Assembly (NCBI GenBank): GCA_040755995.1
Contig: JBFMAF010000035.1
Coordinates: 64,001-128,000 of the forward strand
DNA: 64,000 nucleotides
Direction of reading: 5' to 3'
From: Acidobacteriota bacterium
GTDB lineage: Bacteria > Acidobacteriota > CAIWXX01
Below, in pieces: positions 8,819 through 35,534 of this stretch; the stretch's first letter is position 1; the number at the start of each line of letters is the position of its first letter. The notes below the pieces were generated by a model. It worked only from the letters and a program-made list of their open reading frames with translations. It was not told the origin of the DNA and did not search any database. The position numbers were made by a program, and so were the translations under genes.

Positions 8819-9931
8819 TCACCCGATGTTGGCGATATCGCTGATGACGCCTGCGGCGACCTCCTCGATGTGTGCGACTGCTTCCGCCACGGCGGGCGTT
8901 CCCTTGAGCGCGTTGCCGACCAGTTCAAGCCGCGGCACGTTCGCGAAGAGCAGCTTGTGAATCGGCACCGCAGTATTGCGCCAGCCCCACCTGACCTCCG
9001 TACGCAAGAATCTGCCGAAAGCCTTGCACAACTTCACGTAGAGCCTCTGCGCTTCGCGCGGCAGCGCGTTCAGCGCGCTCCCGTCGAGTCGAGGGAGTCG
9101 TTGGAGGAACATCGCGATCGCCGGCTGCGGGTAGACCTCATCGAAGAAGCGCTCGATGGTTTGCGTGACGATACCGCGGAGCTCGCAGAGCTCGCCGTTG
9201 AGGCACAGGTAGAGCAGTTCGATTGCGTGCCGGCACCTCACGAGCTCCAGATGAGCCGCTGCCAGAAAGGCGAGCTGCTGGTCTTCGTGCCAGGCCGCCT
9301 GCAACACGTGGCGTCCGACATCGCAGAGGATCTGATCCACGCGATCCGCCAGCCCCTCTTTGTCACTCCGGGTCAACAGAGCAACGCGGTCGCGCAGCTG
9401 CGAGAGCCGCAGGTGGAAGGTCTCGTGACCGTGACGCATCAGCTTGACGAACCGCTCGTCATGCATCGGATACCCGGGGCTCAGGTAGAGATCCTCGACG
9501 ATCAGGCTGTACTCGAACCAGTAGTCGTGGAGCGTACGACAGATGTAGTACACAGGCATCTGTGTGTCGAGGCTGCGGACCTGGAAATGAACCTCATAGT
9601 ATCCCACCTCGCTGAGCATGGCTCGAAGGGCCAGAGGGTTGGCCAGACTCACATTGTAGGTTCCCCAGCGGACTTTGATTTGCGTCTCTTCCGTCAGATG
9701 AGCTGTGAGGCGCGCGATGTCGCCGAGTCGCCCGCCTTGGACCTCCAGCTTCCGTCTCAGAGCATCGTACAAGCGGAGACGGCAAAGAAGCGGCCGTAGG
9801 GCTTCGCAGATATCATCGGTCGGGAGCCTCCACCAGCTCCCGCCGTCGCCGCCCCTGCCGTGTTGCGTGGTGTGGGTCGCGGTGGCAGTCCCAGAGCTGT
9901 TGACGGTGTGATCCGGGCCCTGTGAGAACAT
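8819..9931 (-). CDS. hypothetical protein (370 aa), last gene of Clp-MoxR-vWA operon
   Basis: Long ORF 16 nt downstream of vWA gene, AAGGA RBS, no family recognised. Confidence 0.8.
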   Translation of the reverse strand: MFSQGPDHTVNSSGTATATHTTQHGRGGDGGSWWRLPTDDICEALRPLLCRLRLYDALRRKLEVQGGRLGDIARLTAHLTEETQIKVRWGTYNVSLANPLALRAMLSEVGYYEVHFQVRSLDTQMPVYYICRTLHDYWFEYSLIVEDLYLSPGYPMHDERFVKLMRHGHETFHLRLSQLRDRVALLTRSDKEGLADRVDQILCDVGRHVLQAAWHEDQQLAFLAAAHLELVRCRHAIELLYLCLNGELCELRGIVTQTIERFFDEVYPQPAIAMFLQRLPRLDGSALNALPREAQRLYVKLCKAFGRFLRTEVRWGWRNTAVPIHKLLFANVPRLELVGNALKGTPAVAEAVAHIEEVAAGVISDIANIG

Positions 9932-9947
9932 GTGAAACCGTCCTTGC

Positions 9948-12149
9948 CTAGCGTTTCGAGAGAAGCCTGCGGCGTTCGGTCATGCAGGAGGCCACGTACA
10001 CGCCGACCTGCCTCGCCACCTCAGTGTACTCGGTGAGATTCTTTTCCGGCACCGTCATTACCTTGTTCACGAGGTTCTCAAATTCAGTCTCCACCTCGAC
10101 ACCCAACGCAACGAGCGTGACATGGAGCCTGTTGGTCCAGCGCCGATATGACTCTTCCAGAACGTCTCGCACCTCTTCGGCGCCGCTCTTTCCCGAATTG
10201 AAACTGCGATTCCACTCGCAATCCGAGATCAGGATCAGGTAGACCATCTTGCAGCGGGCTACTCGCCGCGCCTCCTCCAGCATGAACGCCAGAGAGAGTG
10301 CGTCTGACTGGACACCTGTCCCGGTGTAAGGCAGCGAGGCGACGGCGCGCACCGCCTCGGTCCGGCTTATCGCCGGCGTCTTTCGAGGATGGTGAATCCA
10401 CTGGATCAGTGGCCCGGACACGCCCTCGCGGATCTGGTCGCTGTGGTAGAGCCCCGCCAGGACCTGCACTTCGGTCCTGGCGGTCGACCTGAGCCAGGCC
10501 GCCGCGAGGATCTTCACCATTCTCATCTGCCGGGTGTCCAGAGATCCCGAGCCGTCGCACGCCAGCAGCAGCACAGGCCGCCCTCGCCGATCGACCTTCT
10601 CGTGTATTCGATATCGCTTGAACACAACGTTGGAGGCATCCACCATCGCGAGCCTGGCCGGGTCGAGCAGTCCGCTCGAGCAGAAGCGCTCGGTCTCCGG
10701 CGTCTGCTCGATGTTCGGATACAGCGCCCTCTGCATCGCGTCGGTGATGACCTGCGACTCCGCGATGAGCGTCTCCACCTCCTCAGCATCCTCTGACAGC
10801 TCCACAGGCCGGTCGAATATCTCGCCTCCAGCCGGCAGCCCTCCGCACATGAGGTTCACCTCGTGGCCCTCCGACGGGTTGCCCTCGATCGGTCCCGTGC
10901 TGAACGCCGTCTCTCGCAGCACATGCTCGACCAGATCCGATCGCATGTCTTCCCACTTGCTGCTCTGCCCGCCCGCCTGCTGCAGTGCTTTCATGAAGTC
11001 GCTCCAGGTCTTCCCAATCGGACTCTCCAGCTCGTCCTCATCGGGCAGGCCCAAGTACCGCTGGGCCTCCTGAATCTTGCCGAGCAGCGCCTGCACGAGA
11101 TGCAGGCCGGACTGTGCTGACTCAAACAGAGCCGGCGGCTGCGGCCCGTCCAGCGGAGGTATCGCGTCGCTGACCGGGGCCGCATCATAATCCGGCGAAA
11201 ACCGGAACTCACTGTCCGCAGGCCGCTGCCACCGCTGCCGACCGTACCTGGCCCCAAGTCGCCGCATCAGCGCCGAAAGGACTGCCTGATCCGGCGCGGG
11301 CCTCTCGCCCTCCCTCGCTGGCTTCTCCTCGGTGCGAGATTTCGGCAGCGGGAGGTGGCGCGACAGCGCGAGACACACCGCCCTGACCCAGTCCTTCCCC
11401 AGGTCCAGCAATCGGTGCGGACGCGTGCCCGCGAGCTGCTCAAAGAACGGACGGCACACCCGAACCACCGTCCCGGCCAGGGTGGCTGTGATGGGATGGA
11501 GGCTCTGGCGTTCCAGGTCGGGAAGCACATCACCATAGAGGATCACCGCGTTTATGATCTCGCGCACCGAACGAAACTTCATGTTCTGCTGCGAGGCGCT
11601 GAAGAGCCTGTACAGCTCGACCGAGGCCATGCTGGAGGACCGTGAGAGATCCTCGAGCAGGAGGCGTGTCTGCACCGCAGCGGCCACGATCTCGGCCATC
11701 TGCTTGTATATCTCAGGTTCCACGCGCACCCGATCGTGAACAGCGGGGTCTTTCAGGTAGTCCTGCATGTGGGTCAGCAGAATCTTCTCGGCTACGCGCT
11801 CCTGGAAGTCCAGGAACCCCGTCAGACCGACGGCTGCGTATGCGGCCAGCGATGGCGGATAGCTCGTGTAGCAGGGGCTCAGCTGTGGCTTCACCGCCGG
11901 CTGAAAATCGTCATCTGTTGCGACCCCCGCCAGCTGCGCCGCGGCGACTTGAACTCTCTTCACGGCTTGGTAGAACAGCCTCTGGGCCGCCATGCGGATG
12001 TAGTAGTCCACCTCCGGCTTGAAGGCATCGCCGATGGAAATCCCAGCCCAGTCTGTCTTGTGCTTCTTTCGCCGGTAAATGTAGGAGCAGCTCCCAGAGT
12101 AGTGGCCGCTGGACACCGTCTCCGGGTTCATCGGCTTTGCTGGGTTCAT
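9948..12149 (-). CDS. vWA-domain protein, NorD/CbbO/CobT-like C-terminus
   Basis: SGLLDPARL..VFKR preceding LLACDGSGSL (MIDAS DxSxS) and LILISD. Confidence 0.88.
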   Translation of the reverse strand: MNPAKPMNPETVSSGHYSGSCSYIYRRKKHKTDWAGISIGDAFKPEVDYYIRMAAQRLFYQAVKRVQVAAAQLAGVATDDDFQPAVKPQLSPCYTSYPPSLAAYAAVGLTGFLDFQERVAEKILLTHMQDYLKDPAVHDRVRVEPEIYKQMAEIVAAAVQTRLLLEDLSRSSSMASVELYRLFSASQQNMKFRSVREIINAVILYGDVLPDLERQSLHPITATLAGTVVRVCRPFFEQLAGTRPHRLLDLGKDWVRAVCLALSRHLPLPKSRTEEKPAREGERPAPDQAVLSALMRRLGARYGRQRWQRPADSEFRFSPDYDAAPVSDAIPPLDGPQPPALFESAQSGLHLVQALLGKIQEAQRYLGLPDEDELESPIGKTWSDFMKALQQAGGQSSKWEDMRSDLVEHVLRETAFSTGPIEGNPSEGHEVNLMCGGLPAGGEIFDRPVELSEDAEEVETLIAESQVITDAMQRALYPNIEQTPETERFCSSGLLDPARLAMVDASNVVFKRYRIHEKVDRRGRPVLLLACDGSGSLDTRQMRMVKILAAAWLRSTARTEVQVLAGLYHSDQIREGVSGPLIQWIHHPRKTPAISRTEAVRAVASLPYTGTGVQSDALSLAFMLEEARRVARCKMVYLILISDCEWNRSFNSGKSGAEEVRDVLEESYRRWTNRLHVTLVALGVEVETEFENLVNKVMTVPEKNLTEYTEVARQVGVYVASCMTERRRLLSKR

Positions 12150-12189
12150 GCCGTCTCTCCTGGCGGCTCAGACCAGCACCCTCCACACG

Positions 12190-12210
12190 GTAGAGAGTAG
12201 AGAGTGGCAG
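12190..12210 (+). repeat. short heptamer array GTAGAGA
   Basis: GTAGAGA GTAGAGA GTGGCAG; reverse complement of the TCTCTAC unit at 60850. Confidence 0.5.
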
Positions 12211-12266
12211 TGAGGCATTGCTCTAAGACTTGACTCAATCGCAGCATCTTCTTCTCCTCAAGCCCG

Positions 12267-13283
12267 CTAGAAGAGGCTTGCTTCCAGTGAGATCTCGGAG
12301 TCCTCGGCCACGGGGATCCCGAAGGTTTCGTTGAGCACGCCGGGGATAAGCTTGTGGTCCTCGACGCCTGCGTTTCCGAGCAGCGTGGCCATGGCAACCT
12401 GCTGCGGCGACATGTGAGGCATCCACAACGCCATGCGCATGAACGCCAGGTACCCGTAAATGGTCGGCGGGCAGAGCGACTGGAGGTTCCCTTCGGAGCG
12501 CTGCCGCCGCACGACCTGGCCGAGTTTGACGACCTTCATGATGAGGTCGTTCTCAGCCTGCCCGAGCGGTTCCCCGTCGAAGAGGAGGTGCCGGAGGACC
12601 TGCACCTCCTGATCAGCCGTGAGGTATTCCAGTGTCAGGTTGACAGAGAAACGCCGTTTGAGAGCATCGTCGAACGTGACCAGCGTGTGCGTGGAATCCT
12701 GCTCGGCCTGATAGTTGCTGTCAGCCACCCAGGCAATTCCCTGACCCGAGATGCGCCGGCCGTCAGGCAGGATAATGTCGTTCTTGGTCATGAGATTCAG
12801 CAAACCCCCTTGCACGCTCGAGGAATGCACCCGGCCCATCTCGCGCAGCCAGATCAACGGGTAGCACTCGCGCCTGCGGCCCGCAGCATCATCGATCGCC
12901 AGTACCAGCTTGCTGAGCTCGTCATAGGTCGTGCCCCCCTTGAGCGCACGGCGCTGGTAGAGTTCCCCCGGCGCTTCGTAGGTCGCCATCTCGATCGGGT
13001 AGAGCTTCAGGGGGAGCCCTGGCAGGCCGAGCGCCGCGCAAACGGACTGGAAGTTCTCGGGGACGAGATAGAGCGCCTCCAGCAGCGAGCTTTTCGCGCT
13101 TCCTGTGGGCCCGCTCAGGTGGATGAACTCGTGGCGAGCGATCGCGTACACGAGCGTCTCGACCAGCCACTTGATCAGGAACAGGCGATGACCTCCCGGG
13201 ACCGGCTGTAGTTCGATCAGATCCATCGGACCCGCTTTCCGACACTCCGCCTGATTCGTGACTCGAAAGATCTGGTTCGCCAT
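12267..13283 (-). CDS. MoxR-class (CbbQ/NorQ/CobS-like) AAA+ protein, non-canonical Walker B
   Basis: Walker A GPTGSAKS, LIWLRE at Walker B position, sensor I VADSN, Arg finger DDALKRRF; adjacent vWA gene. Confidence 0.85.
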   Translation of the reverse strand: MANQIFRVTNQAECRKAGPMDLIELQPVPGGHRLFLIKWLVETLVYAIARHEFIHLSGPTGSAKSSLLEALYLVPENFQSVCAALGLPGLPLKLYPIEMATYEAPGELYQRRALKGGTTYDELSKLVLAIDDAAGRRRECYPLIWLREMGRVHSSSVQGGLLNLMTKNDIILPDGRRISGQGIAWVADSNYQAEQDSTHTLVTFDDALKRRFSVNLTLEYLTADQEVQVLRHLLFDGEPLGQAENDLIMKVVKLGQVVRRQRSEGNLQSLCPPTIYGYLAFMRMALWMPHMSPQQVAMATLLGNAGVEDHKLIPGVLNETFGIPVAEDSEISLEASLF

Positions 13284-13287
13284 GCCG

Positions 13288-15585
13288 TCACCCTCCTCCG
13301 TTGTGGTCCGTCAGGCCGCGGGCCTCACTGGCTGCGTCTCCTGATGGCGCACGTACTGTATCGATCGCCAGGACGCCGTCCCCGCAGCTGCGGGCGAATA
13401 GCGTCGCCCCCGAGATCGCGGCGCCGGATTGATGAAGCCGGAGCAGCGACTCGGCAGCGAGCGAGCGACCCCGCTCCAGGAGCGCCCTTGCACCAAACGA
13501 GGTCATGTTACTGTGGAGAGACTTCAGGAGGGCCGCGCCCAGGCCCTGCTCGAGAATCACGCGGCACCGGGCCAGATGGAGGCGTTCGGTGGCCGAGAGC
13601 AGCGCCGCCCGTATCGCACGCTCCAGAATCGCCGCCAGGGCGTCCCCGCTCAAAGGCTCGAACAGAATCGGCGTCCCCACGCGACTCAGGAAAGCGCTGG
13701 AGAGCATCCGCTTGATCTCGTTGTTGACTCTCCCCGCGACCGCCTCGGCGGGCACTACGTTCTCGAACCCGATCCCTTTGCGCACCGCCTCGTCCATTCC
13801 GTCCGGAAGGTTCATCGTGAAGGCGAAGATCAGGTTGGCACAGGAGAACATGGCACCGGCGGTGCTCTGCGCTTCGCCTGTCTCCAGCACCTGGAGGAAC
13901 AGATCAGCCAACCCGGCCCGTACGCGCTCGTTGGCGTGATCCAGGTCGCTCACTTCGATGAGCGCTCCGGTGTGGTGCTTCGCCGCTTGTTCGAGGCGAC
14001 CGCTCTGGTATGAGCCGACGATGCCCCGGCCGGAGCCCAGAAGCTGTGCGGCGGCGGAGTAGTAGTCCGGGATGCTCGCCGCGTCGACGTTGACATAGGG
14101 GATGCCGAGTCTCTGGGCGATCAGAACGGCGCTTTCCGACTTGCCCGTGCCTGGCGTGCCCTGCGCACAGTAGCGGATAGGCTGATGGAGCGGCCGCGTG
14201 AGGCACTCCATACGAAGCCGCGCGACAAGCTGCTCGATCGCGGCGTCCTGCGCCAGCAGATGTTCCTGGAGATGGGCGAGCAGACCTGGATCCGCCAGCG
14301 CCCGCACGAAGCACGCCTGTGTGGAGGGAGCGCGTTCCGAGCGCGGCCGACAACTCAATCCGGCGAACGTTTCCGAAAGACCGGCTACCGCGGAGGCGAA
14401 GGTCAAGGTGGGCACCATCAGGGCCGTCTTCTGGTGTGCTGCATTGACGCTTCGCGTGGCCACGATTGGCAGGAGCCTCTTCTGTTCAGGTGGAGCCATG
14501 CCCTCGATGCCTGCCAGCACCTCGCGAGCGACCTGGTCCTCCTGGCTCTTCGAGAGCCCGCCGGCGAGGCGCGCTGCGCTCTGCACCGCGAAGGGCGTCA
14601 GGACGTCCATCGTGGCGTCGGGGACTCGGCGCAGAATCGGGTTCAGGGGGTCGCTGGTTCCCCCTTGCCCGCCGTGGAAGACCGCCTGCAGCTGGTCGAA
14701 GCTGCCGCTGAAGATGGCGCAGGCGCCGAGCGAGGACAGTGTTGCCATCAGCGCCTTGATCTCGCTTCCCAGCTCGTATGGGTTCGACCCTAGGCTGAGG
14801 CAGCTGGCGGGAATGACCAGTTTGCCAGGAACCTTCTTCGAGACCTCCACAACGGCTCGACTGTTGATCGATGTCGAGATGACACGGCCGAGGGAGCTGC
14901 CGGAGTCGCGGGCGGCGCGAGCCAACACCGCCAGCCCGAAGCTCTCGACCACGGGGAACGACGCAGAGATCGCCAGCGACGCGCTGCCGGACAGCAAGTC
15001 CATCGTCTCTCGGGCCCATTCCACGAGATCGGAGCCGAGCGACCCCGCGTCGCCATGCCACGGATAGATGGGCTCCACGGCCTCCGAGAAATCCTTGTAC
15101 AGCTGCACGAGATCGGAATCGGTCCGGACAAGCGGCATCTCCGCCTGCAGCGTTCTGGCCAGCTTGTCCAGCGTTTTCAGCTCGGACATGAAAGCAGTCC
15201 CACGGGACAGGGACATCATGGCCGGCTGGATCTTGAGCTCCAGGCCGAGCGATGCGCGCTCAGTCTTGCGATCCCATGCAGGCGGAATCGGACGCGTCCT
15301 CTCGCCCAGGCCCGAGAGGCAGGCGAAAAACGGCATCACCGGCACCCGGATCTCATGCGGCAATCGGACCAGCTCGACCTTCAACGCAATCAGCAGCTCA
15401 TCTGTGAGCCGACCCGATACGCTGACGATACCGGGACCCTCATCGGCTCTCGTGCCCTGGAAGGCGCGTCCGTCTGCAGCGATGCTGATCTCCACACCGG
15501 TTCCATGACGCACGAAGTCGGCCACCTGGCGCAGCGCAGCCTCGGAGCCGGCCGGATCGAGTGACCTCGCCTCTCTAATTGTCAT
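13288..15585 (-). CDS. divergent ClpA/ClpB-like AAA+ protein
   Basis: C-terminal half follows ClpA D2: AQDAAIEQL, GTPGTGKSE, QLLGSGRGIVG, FLQVLETG, FTMN, RKGIGF, FLSRV..ILFEPLS. Confidence 0.85.
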   Translation of the reverse strand: MTIREARSLDPAGSEAALRQVADFVRHGTGVEISIAADGRAFQGTRADEGPGIVSVSGRLTDELLIALKVELVRLPHEIRVPVMPFFACLSGLGERTRPIPPAWDRKTERASLGLELKIQPAMMSLSRGTAFMSELKTLDKLARTLQAEMPLVRTDSDLVQLYKDFSEAVEPIYPWHGDAGSLGSDLVEWARETMDLLSGSASLAISASFPVVESFGLAVLARAARDSGSSLGRVISTSINSRAVVEVSKKVPGKLVIPASCLSLGSNPYELGSEIKALMATLSSLGACAIFSGSFDQLQAVFHGGQGGTSDPLNPILRRVPDATMDVLTPFAVQSAARLAGGLSKSQEDQVAREVLAGIEGMAPPEQKRLLPIVATRSVNAAHQKTALMVPTLTFASAVAGLSETFAGLSCRPRSERAPSTQACFVRALADPGLLAHLQEHLLAQDAAIEQLVARLRMECLTRPLHQPIRYCAQGTPGTGKSESAVLIAQRLGIPYVNVDAASIPDYYSAAAQLLGSGRGIVGSYQSGRLEQAAKHHTGALIEVSDLDHANERVRAGLADLFLQVLETGEAQSTAGAMFSCANLIFAFTMNLPDGMDEAVRKGIGFENVVPAEAVAGRVNNEIKRMLSSAFLSRVGTPILFEPLSGDALAAILERAIRAALLSATERLHLARCRVILEQGLGAALLKSLHSNMTSFGARALLERGRSLAAESLLRLHQSGAAISGATLFARSCGDGVLAIDTVRAPSGDAASEARGLTDHNGGG

Positions 15586-15624
15586 CTCTCGTTCTCCCGT
15601 GTCGCACGTCCCGCTGGAAACCAA

Positions 15625-15640
15625 TGCAGCTTGGGTGCCA
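15625..15640 (-). promoter_or_regulatory. sigma-54 (-24/-12) promoter of Clp-MoxR-vWA operon
   Basis: Minus strand TGGCACCCAAGCTGCA = GG-N10-GC, 40 nt upstream of ATG 15585; EBP gene lies divergently. Confidence 0.7.
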
Positions 15641-15669
15641 GCCGTATGTTAGAGGAAATGCCCGATCTG

Positions 15670-15747
15670 GTTGAGTACTGCGTTGAGTTTCCCAAAGAGG
15701 GTTTGTTGAGATTATCTGAGTCTGGTACAACGGGGAAGAACTCAACG
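15670..15747. promoter_or_regulatory. GTTGAG/CTCAAC motif cluster, candidate upstream activator sites
   Basis: GTTGAG at 15670, 15682, 15705; perfect inverted pair CGTTGAGTT (15681) and AACTCAACG (15739). Confidence 0.5.
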
Positions 15748-15857
15748 AACGAGGGGTGCCCAGGAGTACTCGCGCACTGAAGTTCACCATCACGGCGGAC
15801 ACCGTTGGAGTTTCTCGGGCCTAGCTGGAAACGGACTCGGTTCAGGCGTTCGCCAGG

Positions 15858-16279
15858 GTGAAGAGGCAGGAAGGCCCCGTGGCTTACATCGTCCGGAACG
15901 AGGATCTGGCGGTGTTGTCTTCTTTCAAGGACCTGGTCGTCGATCGCGGCAGGAAGCACGAAGCCAGCTCTCTCAAAGCTGCTGCTCGGGTGCTCGAAGA
16001 TCCCACTGGCCACAGGCGGCTTCTCTGCACCGGGGCAGCTGAAGCGCAGCATTCGAACCGTGCTGCGCAATGCGATCAAGACAAACGATCGCAACGCGTA
16101 CTTCGTCGGGGTGGAGCAGGTGATCTTCGAGGAGCTGTGGAGAGAGGCCAGACCCGAGCCGGCCGGAAGAACCGCCGTGGCCCCGCAGGGCTGGCGAGAA
16201 CCCCGGCGGCCGAGGCGGCCTCGACGCCAGAGGACATCACGTTGGCCCGCACTCTCCTGGAACTTCACCATACACCGAC
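15858..16279 (+). pseudogene. probable frameshifted N-terminal part of the sigma-54 activator
   Basis: Protein-like text alternates between frames of ORFs 15858 and 16060 and runs into the AAA ORF frame near 16270. Confidence 0.5.
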
Positions 16280-17446
16280 GTGCCCCCAGAACTGGAGAAG
16301 CGATTCGTCGGCCGGTCGATCGAGGCCCAGCTGGTTCGGCAGCTCATTGTGCGAGCGGCACGGTCGGATGATCCGGTGCTCATCGTCGGGGATACCGGCA
16401 CGGGCAAGGAGGTCGTGGCGCGCGGCATTCATGAGTTTAGCAACCGCCCCGGGTTCACACCTGTCAACTGCGGCGCGATTCCCAGCGAGCTGCTTGAGCC
16501 GCTACTCTTCGGGCACCAGAAGGTGTTTACCGGGGCCGATCGAGAGCGGTTGGGTCTGTGGAAGGATGCGGGTGAAGGGACGCTGTTTCTGGACGAGGTC
16601 GCCGACCTGCGTTTGGAGCATCAGATCAAGATCCTGCGGGCGATCGAGGAGAAGAAGGTCAGACAGTTGGGGAAGAGCCAGGAGGTCGACGTCCCGGCGC
16701 GGGTGATTGTCGCCAGCAACCGTGATCTTTTCTCCCTGGTGCAGGCCGGATCGTTCCGCGAAGATCTCTACTATCGCCTCCGCACCTTCATGATCCGTAC
16801 GCCGTCGCTGCGCGACTGCCCCGAGGACATCCCGCTGATCGCGGATTCGCTTTGGAAGCGAATTGCGGGAGACGATCAGGTGTCACTCCCCGATCCGATT
16901 CTTGCGGAGCTGAGCTCCTATGGCTGGCCCGGGAACGTGAGGGAGCTCAAGGCGCTGCTTTCCAATCTGCGTGCCCTGTTCGGGAATCATCATCTGCGAA
17001 TCGAGCATGTGAGAGCCATGATGGGGCTGGAGGGCACCGGTCGGGCACAGGTGGGCACGGCGCCCGAGGACCAGATCGGCCTCCACCGCGTCCAGCGCCT
17101 CCGTCACCTGAAGCGGGTGGACGAGGTGGTACGCGCGAGCAAGGTGGCGCTGCGGCCTCTGGTCGAGCAGAAGCGACAGGATCCTGAGAGCATTGCATCG
17201 GTTCGAACCGCCTTGCATCGCCGCCTGGACGAGCTCGAGGTCCCTTGCCTGCATCCACTGCTCTTCAGCAGCGAGGTCGCATTTTCGATCGTGCATCGTC
17301 TCAAAGGCAAGCTGACCTACTACCACAGCCTTCTCCAGACAGGCGCCGTGAACGCCCTTCGCTACTGGAGGCGGGAGGTGTCCGAGGAGTACAAGCTGGC
17401 AATATCCACAGTCTTCCAGGAAGTCAACCGCCTGACCAAGGGGTGA
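16280..17446 (+). CDS. sigma-54 enhancer-binding protein AAA+ domain (atypical)
   Basis: GDTGTGKE, VNCGAIP, LFGHQKVFTGA, LFLDEV, FREDLYYRL, WPGNVREL; no Fis-type HTH recognised. Confidence 0.9.
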   Translation: MPPELEKRFVGRSIEAQLVRQLIVRAARSDDPVLIVGDTGTGKEVVARGIHEFSNRPGFTPVNCGAIPSELLEPLLFGHQKVFTGADRERLGLWKDAGEGTLFLDEVADLRLEHQIKILRAIEEKKVRQLGKSQEVDVPARVIVASNRDLFSLVQAGSFREDLYYRLRTFMIRTPSLRDCPEDIPLIADSLWKRIAGDDQVSLPDPILAELSSYGWPGNVRELKALLSNLRALFGNHHLRIEHVRAMMGLEGTGRAQVGTAPEDQIGLHRVQRLRHLKRVDEVVRASKVALRPLVEQKRQDPESIASVRTALHRRLDELEVPCLHPLLFSSEVAFSIVHRLKGKLTYYHSLLQTGAVNALRYWRREVSEEYKLAISTVFQEVNRLTKG

Positions 17447-17450: not shown

Positions 17451-17663
17451 GGATGCCCGCGAGCTGGTGCGGCGCTTGAGCGAGGATCTGCAGGGGCGCG
17501 GGCACGCCGTATGCATCGATGAGAGACAGGCGCGGCCGAGGATTCCTGGGAGCAGCAGATTGAACACGCCGTCCTGGAAAGCCCGGCGTTCGTTGCCTTG
17601 CTGATCGCGCACTCGGTGTGCCGGCCAGACCGCCTTTGCCTCGACTCTACCGGTGTTTGTTGA
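17451..17663 (+). pseudogene. frameshifted TIR-domain remnant
   Basis: DARELVRRLSEDLQGRGHAVCID then, after a frame change near 17540, DSWEQQIEHAV..FVALLIAHSVCRPDRLCLD; parallels the intact TIR at about 34.6-34.9 kb. Confidence 0.75.
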
Positions 17664-18189
17664 GCTGCTCCTGCAATAGTGCCAGGTCCTGGGGATTCGC
17701 TCCGTTCTGGAGCAGGAATTGAACCACATCGTTCTTCGCCGTCACGGCCGCGGCCATGACTGCGGTCAGCTGCTGGGGGGTGTGCGCGGTGACATCGGCG
17801 CCCTTCGAAAGGAGCGATCTCACAATCTCGAGATTCCCCGCCTGCGCCCAGAACATCAGGACGGTCCAGCCATCGCGTTTCCGAGCATTGACGTCCGCAT
17901 TTGCTGCGAGAAGCAGTCTCGCCACGTTCGAGTTGTTCTTGCGTGCCGCAATCATCAGAGCGCTGACGCCGTCCTTGTCCTGCTCATTCACATCGGCCCT
18001 TCTGCCGATCAACTCCGCAACCAGTTGTTCGGCATCAAGGGCCACGGCGGCCATCAATGCGGTGCCATGATCGCGATCGCGGTGATTGACATCCCCGCCG
18101 GCGTTGATGAACTGGCGGATGTCCCTCTCATTCATTCGTGCCCAGTCGCGCGGTTCGAGATCCTTGCCTTTGGAACTGAACAACCCCAT
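17647..18189 (-). CDS. ankyrin repeat protein (180 aa)
   Basis: Repeats TALMAAV..LIGRRADVN, SALMIAA..ADVNA; GGAGGGAG RBS before MGLFSSK. Confidence 0.92.
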   Translation of the reverse strand: MGLFSSKGKDLEPRDWARMNERDIRQFINAGGDVNHRDRDHGTALMAAVALDAEQLVAELIGRRADVNEQDKDGVSALMIAARKNNSNVARLLLAANADVNARKRDGWTVLMFWAQAGNLEIVRSLLSKGADVTAHTPQQLTAVMAAAVTAKNDVVQFLLQNGANPQDLALLQEQLNKHR

Positions 18190-18346
18190 ACACTCCCTCC
18201 TTTGAGAAGAAGAATCCTGTGTGCCGGATCGGCGTAGGAGAATAACCAAGTCCGCCAGTGGAAAGCAGGCGAAGCCCACACCGTCTGTCATTTGAGGGGC
18301 CACGCGGAAGCGCTCGCAATTCCCCAGATGTCGTCATTGGGCCGCC

Positions 18347-20014
18347 CTATGCTGCGCGATCCGTCTTGGCTCCGGAGCGCCGAGTGAAGACTCGCACCAA
18401 CTGACCCGACAGGCTCAGAAGAAATATGCCAAGGACGATCACGGCGCCCCAACGGACCATCGAGGCCAGCTGGGACCACGGGATCTGCGCTGACCAATGG
18501 AACCATGTCTGATAGCAGAGAAATGCCAGGATGGCGGTGAAACCCGAGAAGAACCCGAGACATCCCCATTCCACATGACCACAATTCCTGCAGACGGCGC
18601 CAGGGTCTGTCATGATGCTCTGGCAACGTGGGCAGGCACGGTCTTTCGACTCTGATCGGGGTTCCGGACCGTGGCGCTTCTCCAGCGCACGGCTTGCAGC
18701 GTCTGCACGGCGCGCGTCGGTTGTGGACACGCCCATTGAGCCGGCGGCCTTCTTCATCAGGGAGTCCATGACGCGCAACTGCTCGTCCGCGCGCGGATGA
18801 CCAAGATCCTTGGCGCGTTGGAAACACCTTCGAGCCTCGTCATGGCGCTCGAAGCTGTCCATCATCAGGTTGAGCACCACCCCTTTGTTGTACAGGCTCT
18901 TGCTGTCCGCCGGTTGAATCTGGAGCGCCTTGTCGTAACACTGCAGAGCTTCCGCAAGTCGGCCGGTCACGCGCAGCTCCTCGCCTTTGTTGTTCCAGGT
19001 TTGCCACAATGAACCATCGAGCCTGAGTGCCCGGTCGTAGGCTTCGATTGCCCCCTCGGTCCGATGTAGCGCGGACCTGGCGAGTCCGATGTTGTGCCAC
19101 AACTTCGCGTCACTGGAATCGAGCTTGGCCGCGGTTTCGAAGCAGGTGAGGGCCTGCTCCAACTCGCCGTTCGCGCTGTGTTCCATGCCCTTGGAGAGCA
19201 GCGCGGCCCTTCCCATGTCGGCCGTTCGACTGCCGGTTTCGGCGGAGAGCATCTCTGCCACCCCCGTATGGCCGCGTGCCCGGGCGTACATGAGTGGGGT
19301 CGAACCGTCCCGGTTGCTCACTCCGGGATCGGCGCCTCGCGCCACCAACTGCGCGGCCACATCCAGGCAACCGTTCTGAGCTGCGAAGTGAAGAGCCGTC
19401 ATTCCATTGACAGGGTTGGCCTCGTTCACGTCGGCCCCCGCGTTGAGGAGGAGTTCCACGATCTGGGAGAAGCCTCGGTCCGCGGCCAGGCCTAGTGGTG
19501 TCGAACCCCACCTGTTGGGCGTGGCAAGGTCGGCGTTCTCTGCGAGAAGAAGCCGTACAGATTCCGTATGGCCCTCCTCCACAGCATACAGAATGGCCGA
19601 CGAGCCGTCGATGTTCCGGGCGTCGATGTCCACGCCCTGGCCCAGCAGCGCACGAACGATACCGGTTTGGTTCTTCCGCGCGGCCATCATGAGCGCCGTC
19701 CACCCGTTGGAATCCCCGACGTCCGCAAGGGCTCCCGCGCTGAGAAGCATCTTGACAACGTCCTCGTGGCCAGTGTCCGCTGCCAACATGAGCGCCGTGG
19801 TGCCTGTGAGCGAACGCGCGCCGGCCTGGGCGCCTGCACTCAGCAAGAGAGCCACGGTCTCCTTCTTCCCGTGCCAGGCCGCGATCATGAGCGGCGTAAA
19901 GCCCTTCGGGTCTCGACCATTGATGTCGGCGCCTTGGGCCAGCAGGCGATTGACCGCCTCAGGTCCCTGGCTCAGGATCGCCAGTACGACGTCAGCATTC
20001 GACGGGGAATTCAT
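18347..20014 (-). CDS. ankyrin-TPR-zinc ribbon-two-TM protein
   Basis: About 7 ankyrin repeats, about 4 TPRs (WHNIG, WNNKG, YNKG), CPRC..CRNC, two C-terminal hydrophobic helices; GAGGAGG RBS. Confidence 0.9.
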   Translation of the reverse strand: MNSPSNADVVLAILSQGPEAVNRLLAQGADINGRDPKGFTPLMIAAWHGKKETVALLLSAGAQAGARSLTGTTALMLAADTGHEDVVKMLLSAGALADVGDSNGWTALMMAARKNQTGIVRALLGQGVDIDARNIDGSSAILYAVEEGHTESVRLLLAENADLATPNRWGSTPLGLAADRGFSQIVELLLNAGADVNEANPVNGMTALHFAAQNGCLDVAAQLVARGADPGVSNRDGSTPLMYARARGHTGVAEMLSAETGSRTADMGRAALLSKGMEHSANGELEQALTCFETAAKLDSSDAKLWHNIGLARSALHRTEGAIEAYDRALRLDGSLWQTWNNKGEELRVTGRLAEALQCYDKALQIQPADSKSLYNKGVVLNLMMDSFERHDEARRCFQRAKDLGHPRADEQLRVMDSLMKKAAGSMGVSTTDARRADAASRALEKRHGPEPRSESKDRACPRCQSIMTDPGAVCRNCGHVEWGCLGFFSGFTAILAFLCYQTWFHWSAQIPWSQLASMVRWGAVIVLGIFLLSLSGQLVRVFTRRSGAKTDRAA

Positions 20015-20015
20015 C

Positions 20016-23000
20016 TCAGGTCCTCCTCGCTCCGAGCTCAATCAAAATATCAGCGACCTGACGGCGATCGGGATGCTTTTCCAGTGCCATGGCCAACGCA
20101 GTGTCACCGTCATCGTCGCACGCGTTGACGTCTGCGCCTCTCTTGACGAGGTCCATCATCAGCTTGAAATACCCGTGCCAGACCGCTCCCATCAGGGGAG
20201 TGCGCCCGAACCTGTCCCGCAGGTTGACCTCGTTCACGGCGTAGAGGATGTCACGTAATTCACGCTCGTTGCACTGGGTCCAATCCAGTTCGTTCGGGCG
20301 AGCCAGATCCAATCCCGGTCCTGGTCTCGAAGGGTGATACGCAATGCCCTGGACAACGCCGGCTGCGTGATCAAGCAGCGGCTTCAGCCCGTAGTCCTCT
20401 CCAATACCAATGGCTTGATTGGCTAGCTGGAGCGCCTGGTTGGTCTGGTTGGCCCTCACGGCGAGCGTGGCCTCACAGAGTAGCGCGTGAACCTTCTCCC
20501 CCGGCTCGTTCAGGGCGCCGGCAAGCCGCGCATGCTCCTCAAAGCGTCGATGCGCTTCGTGAAGGTAGCCCAGCGCCGCAAGAAGCACCGCCTGGTTGCG
20601 CAAGCATCCGAGAAGATCCCGGTCCAGACCCCGGCCGCGGCAGAGGGGCTCCTCCTCGCGCAGCAACCCCAAGGCCTCCTGATTGCGGTTCAGCGAGGCC
20701 AGAGTCGCGGCTCGCCCTCCCAGCGCCGCGACCAACCCAATAGCGTTGCCTGTCTGTCTCGAATGGCCCTCCGCTCGCTCGTAGGATGCCAGTGCCCCTT
20801 CGTAGTCGCCTCTCGCCGCTTGTGCCTGTGCGACTCCGCAGAGCGCCACAGCCTGCATCAACTCCGAGCCTGGCCTGTTGTGCCACCGCTCGACGTTGTG
20901 CTCCCATAGCTGAAACGCCGCTTCCGCGTCACCGCGAGCCCGGAAAAAGCAGGCGAGGTTCCAGACGAGCTCGTCCTCGTGGTCTCCGGGCCGCGCCACG
21001 ACGGGAGAATACGCGGCCACACAGGTCCCGGCGCCGGTTGCCTCGATCTGAGTCCAGTATCTCCACACGTCGGACTTCCGCGTCTGGAATGCAGCAGCGA
21101 AGAACCCGAGGTCGGACAGCAGGGCGAACAGGGCGGGCCACTGGCATGATTCTGCCAGGAGCCATGGCAGCTCAGAACACTTCCGATAGTTGGGCCTCTT
21201 GGCAGCCGTCCCATCGACCACATGATGCGGCTGCGATCGGAAGTACTCGACGAGGTGTGCATGCCGGCCGGCAAGCTCGCCCTGCCGTTCCAGGCGATCA
21301 ACGATCCCCTTGCGAATGGCCGCGTGATAGAAATTCAGTACGCTCGTGGCATCCGCCCGACGCTCGGCGAGGTGGGGCTCTACGTCGGCATGCAATCGCG
21401 ACCATACCACTACAGGAAGCCGAGTTACGAGGGGCGAGCGGGGGGAGCGGCGGCGAAAATCTCCCAGCACCTCAGGATCCGCTGAGAGGACATCCAGCAG
21501 TTCTTCTTCCGTCAATCCGTGGCGGCTCGCCGCCAGCAGACCCAGTGCCCGAAGTGTCAACACCCGCCCATGTTGTCGCTCGTCCTCGAGTCGGGTCAGC
21601 AGTTGTTCCACCAGTCCAGGCACGTCCGAACCGAGCGCGCCAAGGGGATCGTAGGACTTCCAGCGCCGGGCTTCCCCGAAGGCGAGACGCAGATACAGCG
21701 GGAGGCCGGCGACGGCCGATTTCCCCAGTACCTCGCTGCGTTGATCGGGCCGCAGGCTTCGGCCGGCCGCCAGGAGCCACTCGTCGAGCAGCGCCTCTCT
21801 CTCGACCACGTCAAGAGCGTCGACTCTGGCCAGGTTATCGGCGCCTGCAATGCGACTCGCCGTCCGGTAGCATTCGCCTTCAGGGCCGTCGGACTCGATT
21901 CCGGACACGATCAGCTTCACGTTGGGTGGCAGCTCGTGTGGCAACCATGTGAGGTCGCGTGCCCCGTCCGTGGGACTGAGTTGATCGAGTGCATCGAGCA
22001 GCAGGATGAGGGGTCGTTCGGCTGTCGCTAATCTCAAGCGGCTGGAGAACTCCTGGGCCAATTCACGAAAACCGCTGGGCACCGGCCATTCGTTTCCGTA
22101 CTTCTCTCCCAATTCGCTGCATAGCGACTCCAGCAGGGAGGCGCCGTCCGAGGATGCGGGTGTCGCACCGATGAAACGCGCAATAATCGTCGCGGTTGCT
22201 GCCTGATGCGCGACCGTCTCCAGCACCCTCCCCATGAGCGCCGTCTTGCCCGAACCGGAGACTCCGTGGATCAAGAAGGGACAGTTCCGGTCGCCTCCGA
22301 TGTAAGTGTCGATCTTCTCAAGCTGTGCCATCCGGCCCTTGAAGTGCTCGGCGCGCTGCAAACCGAGGTCCCAGTGAGCTCGTATCTCGCGGTCCAGCTC
22401 CCTGCCCCTCTCGAACTCATCTATCTCCCGCTCTATGATCGAGATGAGATCACGCTCCACGCGCGCACAGAGAGTCGAGATCTCTTCATTTGAGATCACA
22501 GGCCAGTTGGTCGTGTACTCATACACATGATCATGTGCGAGCAGACCTGGTTGGCTATCATCCCCCTTCAGGGAGTGCTTGAGAGCACGGAGGCACTCCT
22601 CTGCCTCGAGATCGCGTGCCCCGTTGATCAGGTCGCGGTAGTCCCTGGCGGAGTGGTCTGTGGGCAGACCTGTGATCGTCCGGAAGTAACCAAACACCTG
22701 CCGCTGAGCCCCTGGCTCCTCGAGAGCGCTGCGAATCTCTTGATGACTTGCCGAGTCCTGGTATTTGTCGAGACGTCGATCGCCAGTGTCGAATAGCTGC
22801 TTCGCCGCCGCCAGTAACAGCGAGTGCAGACTTGGTTCCACCGCCTTCCACTGGTCTTCGGCATCATTGTTCGCCTCTCTCGGCAAGAGGTCGTATCTGG
22901 CCGGGACCGCGTTGTCGTCGCGTCTGTACCAGCTGTGGACGACTACACCGGCCGGAACCGCGCTGTCGTCGCGTACATCGCGCCCGGTCGTCTTTTCGCG

Positions 23001-23381
23001 ATGTCTATACCAGCTGGGCAGGAGATTATGGTGTGGGATGCGCCGCAAGAGCGCCTCGAATTCGATCGCCTCGATCTGCGCCGGCAGCGGCCTCCAACCA
23101 TATCGTTCACCAAGCAGCACAATGAAATTCGGACGAGGGGAAAGTCTCTGACAACGCCTCAGCTCCTGGAGGCAGATATTCATCGTCTGCTGGTCGAGCG
23201 CGGCCTCCTCGCTCACGCCCCAGCGAAGGTCGACCGCGTGGAACCGAGCGCCGCGGTCACGGCAATAGGTGCGTAGGTGGGTGAATGTGTTCTCCTGCAG
23301 TGCATTTCGTTCTGCGACCATGTCGCTGAACGTGGAGCTCACAAAGACCCGAAAAATCAGATCCCGTCGCGTCATTGTCAT
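20016..23381 (-). CDS. NLR-like STAND NTPase: DUF4062-NACHT/AAA-TPR-ankyrin
   Basis: RVFVSSTFSDM..ER, VDLRWG, LLGERYGW; GVSGSGKT; LLLDALDQL; TPR helices; C-terminal ankyrin repeats. Confidence 0.9.
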   Translation of the reverse strand: MTMTRRDLIFRVFVSSTFSDMVAERNALQENTFTHLRTYCRDRGARFHAVDLRWGVSEEAALDQQTMNICLQELRRCQRLSPRPNFIVLLGERYGWRPLPAQIEAIEFEALLRRIPHHNLLPSWYRHREKTTGRDVRDDSAVPAGVVVHSWYRRDDNAVPARYDLLPREANNDAEDQWKAVEPSLHSLLLAAAKQLFDTGDRRLDKYQDSASHQEIRSALEEPGAQRQVFGYFRTITGLPTDHSARDYRDLINGARDLEAEECLRALKHSLKGDDSQPGLLAHDHVYEYTTNWPVISNEEISTLCARVERDLISIIEREIDEFERGRELDREIRAHWDLGLQRAEHFKGRMAQLEKIDTYIGGDRNCPFLIHGVSGSGKTALMGRVLETVAHQAATATIIARFIGATPASSDGASLLESLCSELGEKYGNEWPVPSGFRELAQEFSSRLRLATAERPLILLLDALDQLSPTDGARDLTWLPHELPPNVKLIVSGIESDGPEGECYRTASRIAGADNLARVDALDVVEREALLDEWLLAAGRSLRPDQRSEVLGKSAVAGLPLYLRLAFGEARRWKSYDPLGALGSDVPGLVEQLLTRLEDERQHGRVLTLRALGLLAASRHGLTEEELLDVLSADPEVLGDFRRRSPRSPLVTRLPVVVWSRLHADVEPHLAERRADATSVLNFYHAAIRKGIVDRLERQGELAGRHAHLVEYFRSQPHHVVDGTAAKRPNYRKCSELPWLLAESCQWPALFALLSDLGFFAAAFQTRKSDVWRYWTQIEATGAGTCVAAYSPVVARPGDHEDELVWNLACFFRARGDAEAAFQLWEHNVERWHNRPGSELMQAVALCGVAQAQAARGDYEGALASYERAEGHSRQTGNAIGLVAALGGRAATLASLNRNQEALGLLREEEPLCRGRGLDRDLLGCLRNQAVLLAALGYLHEAHRRFEEHARLAGALNEPGEKVHALLCEATLAVRANQTNQALQLANQAIGIGEDYGLKPLLDHAAGVVQGIAYHPSRPGPGLDLARPNELDWTQCNERELRDILYAVNEVNLRDRFGRTPLMGAVWHGYFKLMMDLVKRGADVNACDDDGDTALAMALEKHPDRRQVADILIELGARRT

Positions 23382-23543
23382 GGATCGTGTCCTGGCGCAG
23401 CGGGGCGAATAGGTTGTTGCTCCCAACCTGAGATCACAGGGAGCGCCCGATCACCACTTGGCCGGTCTGGAAGGCAACGATATGGCGTGCATCCGGAGCG
23501 CTCCGGTTCGCGGCCGGAGGCGATGCCCACTTGCATTGCAGCC

Positions 23544-26111: not shown

Positions 26112-26127
26112 TGCAAGCGCCGTGCCA
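26112..26127 (-). promoter_or_regulatory. sigma-54 (-24/-12) promoter
   Basis: Minus strand TGGCACGGCGCTTGCA, full consensus match, 31 nt upstream of ATG 26081 (RBS AAAGGAG). Confidence 0.85.
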
Positions 26128-26205
26128 ATAGAGCGTGGCCTCTCGGGCCAGCCGAACCGCTTGATTTCGCTCTTCTGCGATGACGTGGGCGGGTCGAGTC
26201 AGAGC

Positions 26206-26247
26206 TAACTCAACCTCGTCGTGACTTGAGATGGACTATAACTCAAC
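26206..26247. promoter_or_regulatory. direct repeat TAACTCAAC x2, candidate activator sites
   Basis: TAACTCAAC at 26206 and 26239 (33 bp apart) with TTGAG between. Confidence 0.5.
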
Positions 26248-26492
26248 TACTCTCATCGCAACGCGGGATGACTTCCGGTCCGCAGAAGACCGAGGCCGGA
26301 GCGTGCTCTAGTAGGGGCGAACTCGACCTGACGTCCATCCTGAGAGTCATGAGCGCATCCCGTTTCGATGGCGATCATCATTGATGCGCGTACCGAACGC
26401 TTGTATCATCTCGCAAATAATGAGGGCGATTCAGGGCGGCACTCGAGTCTGGCCTACCGAACCAACTGGTGGAAGCGAAGGGGATTGGGGGA

Positions 26493-29400: not shown

Positions 29401-29984
29401 AGATCGAGGAAGCAGACCAGCTGATGCGCCGACCCCTCGAAATCGCCGAACGCTGTTTCGACGAACACCATCCGGTGGTCGCAAGATGCATCAACAACTT
29501 GGTACAGGCACTTCTGGCTACCAGCCAACTCGATGAGGCGCTACGCTACATGCGCCGCGCACTCGAAATCGCTGAGCACAACCTGGGAAAGTCCCACCCC
29601 GATATCGCCATGCATCTCGACCAAATGGCTTCTGTGCTTTCCAAGACTGGCCAGATCACTGAGGCGGAACATGTCATCCGCCGCGCAGTCGAAATCGCTG
29701 AATACAACCTCGGAGAGGACCACCCTGATGTCGCCACGAGGCTCTACAGACTGGCCGTATTGGTGTCCCTCCACAGCCCAGACAGAGCCGAGCCGCTCTT
29801 GTGCCGCGTGATGGAAATCCACATGAAGCATTCGCAGGCCACAGGGAATACGCGCCCACAACTGAATCAGAGCCTCCAAAACTATCGATTCCTGCTCGAG
29901 CAGCTAGGCTTTTCAGCTGAGCAGATTGCCCTCAAGATCGGCAGCACGGGGCGCAAGTATGGAATAAGGACGCCAGGGTGGTAA
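26493..29984 (+). CDS. NLR-like STAND NTPase: DUF4062-NACHT/AAA-TPR (NPHP3-like architecture)
   Basis: RVFVSSTFRDM, VDLRWG, LGERYGW; GDSGSGKS; LVLDALNQL; 42-aa TPRs (DHP.VA..LNNLA.LL). Confidence 0.92.
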   Translation: MMSLWKRFFGKKEPSARRLESNRSTAIQSGVPVTASGDGANPSRPGTAAVPPQSQVSGLAGTPLTGPGSAPVAGNRRIRVFVSSTFRDMVEDRNQLMTHAWPALRRLCRERQVEFVEVDLRWGITEAQSTRRETLKLCLDEIRACRPFFICMLGERYGWVPGDDAFTEDLKEEQPWLAGLRGKSVTEMEILHGVLNNPEMVQRTFFYFRDPAYAKTRGSDYLSDTEADAEKHEALKALIRDVCRTRHIPLRENYADPGQLAAMVLADLSAAVEAQFPKESIPDPLSKAAQEHEAFAETRRRTYVGRAEYFEALDRHAVSGGGPLVLLGDSGSGKSALLANWLAHWRQGHPEDFVVQQYVGGTADSANHWWLMGRVIAEIKRWSEDPEAQPSTCDDIRRDFPLWLAKARARAAHKGVRLILVLDALNQLDDQDHARLLGWLPEHPFSGPLRLVVSTLPGKSGEDDPLSAIRKRGWQELHIEPLTVEERRRLIVDYLARFGKTLDEHRLVRLASAASADNPLYLKILLDDLRVTGTHERLHQRLTDYLAATDIPSLLQQVLDRYQRDYERDRPGLVADVLGLIFASRRGLSETELLQLLRPADQAQLPPAIWTLLRAALEDSLVDRGGILNFAHEFLRRAVGRTFAIDEKRSATLRLQLADYFEAQPITERSCDELPWLLKETASLDRLRSCLLHIDRFLLIKERDEQELRRYWIEELRERQTMGKAYLSSFESWSAESGPSEQRIAFAANELGLFLLDASLHAEAEPLMRRALETDERVFGEDEAPVGRDLNGLALLLKATNRLDEAERYMRRAIDVCEWSCGEGHLMAATSLNNLAGLLVDRGRPEEAKPLMRRALEIDELSLGKDHPVVANDLNNLAGLLHETGHIAEAEPLMRRALDILERGLGEHHPDVGRVSNNLAQLLQDRGRGREAESLMRRAIEIDELSFGEDHPSVARDINNLVGLLIDTGQIEEADQLMRRPLEIAERCFDEHHPVVARCINNLVQALLATSQLDEALRYMRRALEIAEHNLGKSHPDIAMHLDQMASVLSKTGQITEAEHVIRRAVEIAEYNLGEDHPDVATRLYRLAVLVSLHSPDRAEPLLCRVMEIHMKHSQATGNTRPQLNQSLQNYRFLLEQLGFSAEQIALKIGSTGRKYGIRTPGW

Positions 29985-30609: not shown

Positions 30610-30669
30610 GTGGCGCGCCTCTACTCCAACGAGAACTTCCCGCTGCCTGCTGTTGAGGAGCTGCGGCGC
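30610..30669 (+). pseudogene. DUF5615 (PIN-like toxin) N-terminal remnant
   Basis: GTG directly after DUF433 stop encodes MARLYSNENFPLPAVEELRR, then similarity ends. Confidence 0.7.
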
Positions 30670-35518: not shown

Positions 35519-35534
35519 CGCAGCCGCGAATGCC

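Follow-up and report, generated by a model that had tools for sequence, protein, structure and literature searches.

The operon and its promoter

Within a 64,000-nucleotide (nt) stretch of an Acidobacteriota genome (assembly GCA_040755995.1, contig JBFMAF010000035.1, positions 64,001 to 128,000), hereafter the window, we examined a four-gene operon on the minus strand. Its genes encode a Clp/Hsp100-like protein (13288..15585, 765 amino acids (aa)), an AAA+ ATPase of the CobS/MoxR clade (12267..13283, 338 aa), a CobT-like protein with a domain of the von Willebrand factor A (vWA) type (9948..12149, 733 aa), and an orphan open reading frame (ORF), ORF4 (8819..9931, 370 aa). The operon is real and conserved, and the four genes are co-oriented and separated by gaps of 4, 117 and 16 nt, just as an earlier sequence-only reading of the window had described them. 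For the Clp-like gene the most likely start codon is ATG 15585, which follows a Shine-Dalgarno-like GGAG and is preferred over a TTG at 15624. The promoter that had been placed before the operon is also present, as a sigma-54 -24/-12 site on the minus strand (TGGCAC-N6-TGC, 15640-15625), and such strict sites occur only twice per strand in the window; beyond it lie four ACTCAAC/GTTGAG boxes (15670..15746; at 15670, 15682, 15705 and 15740), which are candidate upstream activator sites. The neighbouring gene for a sigma-54 enhancer-binding protein (EBP; 15765..17446, plus strand) exists as claimed, but it stands back to back with the operon instead of facing it, and it is broken.

A Pfam scan of the four operon proteins returned AAA_2 in the Clp-like protein, while its three partners gave no match that passed the cut-off, and NCBIfam and PADLOC gave the core proteins sub-threshold or generic AAA matches only; the earlier MoxR and vWA labels stand on profile and Atlas searches, with no direct Pfam match for either. 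By eye, none of the four proteins has membrane or signal features. The 117-nt gap between the MoxR and vWA genes (window 12150-12266) can fold into hairpins (-36.9 kcal/mol, a value taken with no shuffle control), and in most homologues the same gap is about 0-15 nt.

Conservation and distribution

Homologue searches found 370 relatives of the MoxR protein and, among 8000 candidates scored for each of the other two, at least 186 of ORF4 and at least 229 of the Clp-like protein; ORF4 representatives at 50% identity number 262. We fetched 84 loci (21 from genomes and 63 from metagenomes), and the named records belong to Acidobacteriota, Thermodesulfobacteriota, Nitrospirota, Planctomycetota, Bacteroidota, Chloroflexota, Lentisphaerota and Pseudomonadota. 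Where the flanks allow a judgement, and with redundant loci kept in the counts, the Clp-like gene lies directly upstream of the MoxR gene in 60 of 63 loci, the vWA gene downstream of it in all 66, and ORF4 further downstream in 44 of 47, while a family EBP is present in 27 of 35. The three exceptions to the gene order are near-copies of one another (L058-L060) that hold only an EBP, a MoxR core and a fusion of the MoxR lid to the vWA protein; in this reduced form (L058:10001-12075) both the Clp-like gene and ORF4 are missing. The co-occurrence on which the sequence-only reading depended is thus conserved, and the scattering of homologues that would have told against it was not seen in the 84 loci. 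The module is rare: of 301 genomes sampled from the phylum, 6 have ORF4, and a single genus accounts for four of these. A prophage or viral origin was considered and rejected, as none of the 84 loci is viral, viral_contigs hold no relative, and PHROGs yielded generic Clp matches only.

The activator, its boxes and a candidate regulon

The 388-aa ORF that remains of the EBP in the window covers no more than the 3' part of the gene, which is broken and about 560 codons long; the AAA+ and helical C-terminal domains are open (16280-17446) and the N-terminal domain is disrupted (15765-16277). Homologues are 555-600 aa long and can be aligned to window 15765-16185 through two further reading frames; compared with a paralogue on contig C28 of the same genome, the window gene has lost its start codon, is interrupted by TAG 15822 and has three short deletions. 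The mixture of substitutions and indels, in a stretch where the four operon genes are intact, favours real decay. The features of the EBP class that are present are the Sigma54_activat domain (E 1.4e-51), a GAFTGA-type loop and a Walker B motif with DE; the loop is canonical or close to it in most of the family's 26 distinct loops and degenerate in several, and that of the window copy (KVFTGA) is one residue shorter than its C28 counterpart. No Fis-type helix-turn-helix (HTH) domain was matched in the EBP. In its place is a helical C-terminal domain, which like the N-terminal domain is specific to the family, or, in some relatives, a ryanodine receptor (RyR) domain.

Sigma-54 control of the operon, as had been proposed, is borne out by the regions upstream of the Clp-like gene. 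Of 41 homologous regions, 17 contain a strict site, where the reverse strand gives 0 out of 45 and random segments give 64 out of 2200, and a weight matrix finds sites in 19 of 37 against 1 of 37, a comparison that is partly circular since the matrix was built from those same sites. The most enriched 7-mers in 37 regions (8 near-duplicates having been dropped) are AACTCAA and ACTCAAC: the latter is present in 23 of them, against 1.3 expected in base shuffles, and at least two copies are found in 17, against 39 of 3600 random segments.

A second sigma-54 site in the window (26127-26112, minus strand) is accompanied by two ACTCAAC boxes at 26208 and 26241 (26112..26247 in all) and precedes a gene for a secreted-type PKD-BNR-Ig-TIG protein (23712..26081, minus strand), a second candidate member of the regulon. 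Of 1155 sigma-54-like sites in the host genome, only four carry boxes, namely those of the operon and the PKD-BNR-Ig-TIG gene and the C28 remnants of both. Among 30 listed loci with the box pair, plus three fetched regions, good promoters beside the pair were found in G000 (the host genome), G001 and G093, all of them EBP carriers, and a marginal one in G236; the gene behind the promoter encodes a BNR-Ig-TIG protein in G001 and has an N-terminus resembling a signal peptide by eye in G093. We infer that the ACTCAAC boxes are binding sites of the EBP, from which it would activate the operon and genes for secreted proteins alike; repeated boxes combined with a -24/-12 site point to a candidate regulon, secreted proteins included. 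The box pair by itself was rejected as a genome-wide marker as being non-specific. A further candidate member is an SPFH/Band 7 gene of G001 (L120:6097-7547), which likewise lies behind two boxes and a sigma-54-like site, and at L064:3734-3849 a box pair and a sigma-54-like site point toward a HATPase_c_3 gene, whose family (by BLAST clustering of the ORF beside it) also occurs near L005 and L032.

The island neighbourhood and its second copy

The NLR/TIR cluster reported beside the operon is confirmed. It comprises three genes for NLR-like sensors, of the architectures DUF4062-NACHT-TPR-ankyrin (20016..23426, minus strand), DUF4062-NACHT-TPR (26469..29984, plus strand) and TIR-NACHT-WD40 (30621..35060, minus strand), together with two ankyrin or ankyrin-TPR genes (17647..20041, minus strand) and, at 35487..36162 on the plus strand, the 3' end of a TrkA_N-RyR gene (one RyR domain) and the 5' end of a RelA/SpoT-RyR gene, both of which have intact copies on C28.

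On C28, the segment 162304-164332 (L085:10305-12333) contains an intact EBP of 561 aa (78.6% nt identity) adjoining only 206 nt of the ORF4 3' end, the operon and the secreted-protein gene having been deleted there, and the island continues to about 177200 with TIR-NACHT-WD40, AAA-RyR-RyR, TrkA_N-RyR, RelA/SpoT-RyR and inositol monophosphatase-family genes. The window copy retains the operon, the secreted-protein gene and the three NLR-like genes, and of the RyR genes only scraps. All RyR matches in the host genome fall within these two copies. Since the losses are reciprocal, a full pathway would exist only in trans, and the pattern suggests continued selection for the activator and the operon to function in that way; the host operon could then be driven only by the intact C28 EBP or by the truncated AAA+ remnant in the window.

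The neighbourhood was described more widely from 40 loci, each 7 kb or longer and with duplicates removed, in which 165 ORFs (cut to 650 aa) within 5 kb of the module were scanned. A TIR or NACHT-type gene is present in 13 loci, nine of them with TIR_2, whose background is about 0.9 per Mb (51 matches over some 57 Mb, summed across 11 genomes that carry the module), in agreement with the immune-type neighbourhood claimed earlier. Ten of the 40 loci encode RyR domains, which are joined to TrkA_N, RelA/SpoT or AAA-type proteins; in two loci an RyR domain replaces the C-terminal domain of the EBP (L018:14468-16039 and L048:3383-4942); a solo RyR gene adjoins the latter fusion. At the level of genomes, RyR is found in 6 of 6 with ORF4 and 8 of 8 with a strong EBP match, against 21 of 301 in the phylum overall, a number that includes the unpublished G025, from which no other result is drawn. 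One genome, G001, has EBP, NACHT-type, TIR, RyR and secreted-protein genes and no match to the MoxR protein or ORF4, and we therefore regard the operon as an optional arm of the island.

Phage RyR domains bind or cleave 2'/3' cyclic ADP-ribose (2'/3'cADPR), according to the portions consulted of two 2026 preprints (PMC13232231; 10.64898/2026.06.04.730250). The bacterial domains share with the phage proteins described there, RyDEP and RyR Tad, the Pfam family PF02026 and the H..W ligand motif, which is kept in 23 of the 28 bacterial RyR domains examined (near-duplicates included); they differ in being host-encoded and fused to RelA/SpoT, TrkA_N, AAA-type or EBP proteins. The main text of a survey of TIR systems (10.64898/2025.12.03.692087) contains no occurrence of RyR, MoxR or vWA.

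Around other loci the module is flanked by Ig-like, dockerin, autotransporter and GLUG genes. A family of TIR proteins of 345-414 aa recurs near it (L005, L006, L012, L032 and L078), often close to RelA/SpoT-RyR or phosphofructokinase-domain genes.

The CobS-like and CobT-like proteins and ORF4

MoxR-vWA pairs such as CbbQ/O and NorQ/D are known as chaperones. The profile of the MoxR family of the operon matches CobS best (E 2.3e-7), and its vWA partner is CobT-like by Atlas features (0.96) and by structure, with a helical N-terminal region and a C-terminal vWA domain at which the protein ends; the metal ion-dependent adhesion site (MIDAS), which includes D643, keeps its DxSxS motif in 40 of 40 homologues. 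The two genes thus resemble CobS/CobT in placing a CobS-like AAA+ protein beside a CobT-like vWA protein with a MIDAS. They differ in the Walker B motif of the ATPase (WLRE), in a lid that is sometimes a separate gene or fused to the vWA protein, and in the additional Clp and ORF4 genes. The P-loop reads GPTG[ST]AK[ST] (GPTGSAKS in 28 homologues and GPTGTAKS in 18; AK[ST], with the Walker A lysine, in 71 of 72), and the arginine fingers and the glutamate at the catalytic position are present in all 72. No CobN-like client was found among the 165 flanking ORFs scanned.

In 15 of 58 MoxR homologues (4 truncated rows dropped) core and lid are separate genes, the lid having its own Shine-Dalgarno-like site and start (L011, L012, L014-L017, L020, L053, L054, L056, L057, L062-L064 and L070). 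The two parts are translationally coupled and always cut at the same linker, around residues 234-245, from one or several origins: a quick tree needs seven changes and is still compatible with one. A programmed frameshift in the MoxR gene was rejected, as the split copies have their Shine-Dalgarno-like sequences and starts at differing offsets.

The ORF4 model (predicted local distance difference test, pLDDT, 91) has a putative two-lobe fold, which over its whole length weakly recalls PolE (DUF6421; Z 7.5, root-mean-square deviation (rmsd) 6.8 over 250 aligned residues; Foldseek E 1.5e-3 and probability 1.0, a level that unrelated folds can reach) and dipeptidyl peptidase III (DPP III, M49; Z 6.0), the matches to both having rmsd of 6.7-7.4 and identities of 6-12%. 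The ESM Atlas gave no usable match for ORF4. PolE is itself DPP-III-like, with the motif H(E/D)xxH-x21-23-E, in the part of its description consulted (PMC12614342). ORF4 carries H215-E-D-Q-[R/Q/H]-x18-E238, whose spacing, from which the register with PolE was inferred, is reminiscent of a metal site: H215 is conserved in 121 of 136 homologues, Q218 in 135 and E238 in 134, but the second histidine in only 6, so that the metal motif is incomplete, and at the sequence level there is no match. In L005 the EBP is followed immediately by the gene of a true M49 peptidase (L005:3971-5614), to which the ORF4 profile shows no similarity.

Complex prediction joined vWA residues 78-732 to ORF4 residues 37-368 with a score of 0.84, the best of three controls scoring 0.00; of 157 solved pairs 116 attain this mark, as do 2 of 215 mismatched pairs, rates that are only rough for the present case. 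Contacts agree to at least 82%, the partner pLDDT is at least 83, and neither chain has a sequence relative in the PDB at E<0.1. The modelled interface covers vWA 94-409 and includes ORF4 216-220, and it lies away from the MIDAS. ORF4 is accordingly predicted to bind the N-terminal part of the vWA protein, a placement that fits a subunit or adaptor better than a client captured by the MIDAS or a free effector, the sequence-only reading having proposed a client or effector.

The Clp-like protein and the MoxR-vWA ternary systems

The Clp-like protein consists of an alpha/beta N-terminal domain (residues ~10-150), a dead AAA+ ring, D1 (~160-400), and a ring resembling ClpA D2 (~430-745). Its model (pLDDT 90) has ClpA as top Foldseek match over both rings (E 6.9e-23; ClpA range 163-750), although the sequence similarity to Clp is confined to D2. 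Walker A (GxxxxGK[ST]) is found in D1 (residues 150-400) of none of 115 homologues. In D2, GK[ST] is kept in 114, R635 in 115, R700 in 114 and the arginine fingers in all 115, and 110 have an [ILMVF]GF loop, a putative docking element for ClpP that aligns with the IGL loop of ClpA; genes for ClpP and RpoN are present in the host genome. Clp_N found no match in the protein, whose N-terminal domain has no fold match in PDB or Pfam and is described as novel; that its topology may be YbjN-like is a guess. Profiles of this domain, of both EBP terminal domains and of ORF4 revealed no adaptor domains shared, in the manner of effector-associated domains (EAD), between core proteins and neighbours.

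Compared with class I Clp/Hsp100 proteins (ClpA, ClpC), the family shares the D1-D2 fold, the D2 Walker A, the arginine finger and the IGF/L loop of D2, and lacks a Clp_N match and the two active nucleotide-binding domains with hhhhDE Walker B motifs and aromatic pore loops. A Clp-type third component, as claimed, is present, but simple ClpA-like proteolysis is not assured, given the dead D1, the missing Clp_N and the altered Walker B of both ATPases.

The nearest known relatives are the FtsH-type MoxR-vWA ternary systems, whose third component is also a tandem of dead and live AAA+ domains, as set out in the part of Kaur 2020 consulted (PMC7159879). As described there, the likeness extends to a MoxR protein with a GxxxTAKS-type P-loop, a vWA protein with a helical N-terminal domain, an extra standalone gene and a conflict-type context. 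Membership fails, however, since the live ring of the operon protein is Clp-type rather than FtsH-type: D2 is its best match in sequence and in fold, with Clp/ClpB entries at Z 21-23 and FtsH at rank 45 (Z 11.8). Further differences are the IGF loop, the altered Walker B, the intact MIDAS, the constant ORF4 partner, the dedicated EBP with its boxes and the RyR/NACHT neighbourhood; in the 5-kb flanks radical SAM genes occur in 2 of 40 loci, and ubiquitin-like (Ubl) conjugation genes were not seen. Kaur 2021 added the iSTAND2 and TERNS3 systems, neither of which is Clp-like in the part consulted (PMC8195603). With its Clp-like third component and no vWA fusion, the operon fits none of the VMAP, iSTAND, iSTAND2, TERNS3 and beta-propeller types. 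The claim that no ClpA-like third component is known thus agrees with the literature searched, but the architecture is less unprecedented than had been said, a dead and live tandem being already on record in the FtsH type.

Discussion

Our literature search, which left most subscription papers outside its coverage, found no description of the operon or of host islands joining RyR and EBP genes, in keeping with the earlier expectation that it matches no characterised system; the operon is a rare variant of the MoxR-vWA theme. The 2015 NAR paper of Burroughs et al., said to treat SLOG/SLATT systems, may mention RyR fusions.

We interpret the operon as an inducible machine for protein remodelling or proteolysis within a TIR/NACHT-RyR signalling island, a reading to which we give roughly even odds (about 0.5). 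It lies among genes for immune sensors and signal-binding proteins, with what appears to be its own activator, and so it may provide bacterial immunity with an arm that can be induced, as an optional output of the island with a putative part in defence. Of the sequence-only reading, co-occurrence, the Clp-type component, sigma-54 control and the immune context survive, while ClpA-like proteolysis and a client or effector role for ORF4 do not carry over as stated; the ACTCAAC regulon and the connection to RyR are absent from it. Most likely the trigger would be a signal of an invader or of stress that the NLR-like sensors beside the operon pass on, perhaps in the form of a cADPR-type molecule read by RyR domains. 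The EBP, on its ACTCAAC boxes, would then fire the operon and the secreted-protein genes; the vWA-ORF4 complex would select a client through the MIDAS and the ORF4 cleft, the CobS-like ring would remodel it, and the Clp-like ring would hand it to ClpP through the IGF loop, or disassemble it.

Several findings weigh against this interpretation. TIR and NACHT-type genes are absent within 5 kb from 27 of the 40 loci, and RyR from 30; of 15 further module-bearing genomes, 10 have RyR and 5, which are incomplete, have no match. The six ORF4-bearing genomes of the phylum represent only three lineages. Box pairs (31-34 nt spacing) occur in 29 of 301 genomes, made up of 3 of the 8 strong-EBP genomes and 26 others, and the best-supported co-regulated genes encode secreted surface proteins, not toxic effectors. 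The fold of ORF4 matches nothing over its whole length except PolE and DPP III, both weakly. Finally, the two ATPase families conserve non-canonical Walker B motifs: in D2 it has become xExSDLD (SD in 112 of 115 homologues, DE in none), and in the MoxR family WLRE, with RE for DE in 71 of 72 and DE in none; the D2 pore loop is GIVG, with an aromatic residue at the pore position in 5 of 115. With Walker B altered in both and the pore aromatic mostly lost, ATP hydrolysis and threading are uncertain.

The nature of the co-regulated genes raises the strongest alternative, a sigma-54 regulon of surface or community functions unrelated to defence, in which the machine would assemble or quality-control complexes of co-induced secreted beta-rich proteins and the NLR islands would merely be shared. 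Every verified site outside the operon that combines boxes with a promoter (in G000, G001 and G093) precedes a secreted-type protein, G001 keeps EBP, secreted-protein and RyR genes where the MoxR protein and ORF4 find no match, and surface-type genes flank other loci. We nonetheless hold it unlikely, in view of the excess of TIR_2 near the module over its background, the two fusions of EBP to RyR, and the absence of membrane or signal features by eye in the four core proteins.

The resemblance of the pair to CobS/CobT, and of ORF4 with its conserved histidine and glutamate to PolE and DPP III, invites a different view, namely that the pair is a chaperone which, in the manner of CobNST or NorQ/NorD, serves metal insertion or acts as an activase, loading metal into an ORF4 metalloenzyme that the Clp-like protein turns over. 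The scarcity of the second histidine speaks against it, as do a modelled interface that sits on the vWA N-terminal region instead of the MIDAS and covers ORF4 216-220, and the lack of recurring substrate or pathway genes near the loci; we think it still less likely than a surface regulon. Improbable too is an unrecognised branch of the simple type of FtsH system, in which ORF4 would stand for NEFF1 or a comparable effector: the tandem of dead and live AAA+ domains, the helical vWA domain and the P-loop fit the description, but the Clp-D2-like live ring, the non-canonical Walker B, the intact MIDAS, the rarity of radical SAM genes and the lack of Ubl-conjugation genes in the 5-kb flanks do not, and the main text of PMC7159879 contains no occurrence of sigma-54 or RyR. 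Least credible of all is that both rings are pseudo-ATPases, nucleotide-sensing scaffolds in a complex that works as a switch or sink and has no motor function, as the lost Walker B DE and pore aromatic might imply, in view of the retained Walker A lysines, arginine fingers, MoxR catalytic-position glutamate and Clp IGF loop.

Returning to the remodelling machine within a signalling island, we tentatively put forward a fuller version, which we consider well short of probable: NLR-like TIR/DUF4062-NACHT sensors would make a cADPR-type signal, host RyR domains (carried by RelA/SpoT, TrkA_N and AAA proteins and in some cases by the activator) would read it, and an HTH-less activator at ACTCAAC boxes would induce secreted proteins and the Clp-MoxR-vWA-ORF4 machine, which, its ATPase chemistry rewired, would dismantle the sensors or invader proteins. 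If this were true, host RyR domains would be second-messenger receptors in an axis of sensor, signal, transcription factor and response like those of animals and plants. The natural EBP-RyR fusions allow a direct test of host RyR as cADPR receptors, a question that arises from the two phage-RyR preprints, and further testable handles are a named promoter with candidate boxes and an activator seemingly devoid of the usual DNA-binding domain. The MoxR-vWA repertoire, for its part, gains a third component of Clp type and a fourth subunit that is constant, along with two AAA+ families in which non-standard Walker B motifs are conserved.

Other features of the window

Two regions of the window away from the operon drew attention by eye. 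At 43822-47932 lie an ORF resembling an ATP-dependent DNA ligase and another that is KaiC/RecA-like and has an N-terminus rich in Met and Pro. At 61960-63069 an ORF resembles, by a motif, topoisomerase VI subunit A, a protein unusual in bacteria.

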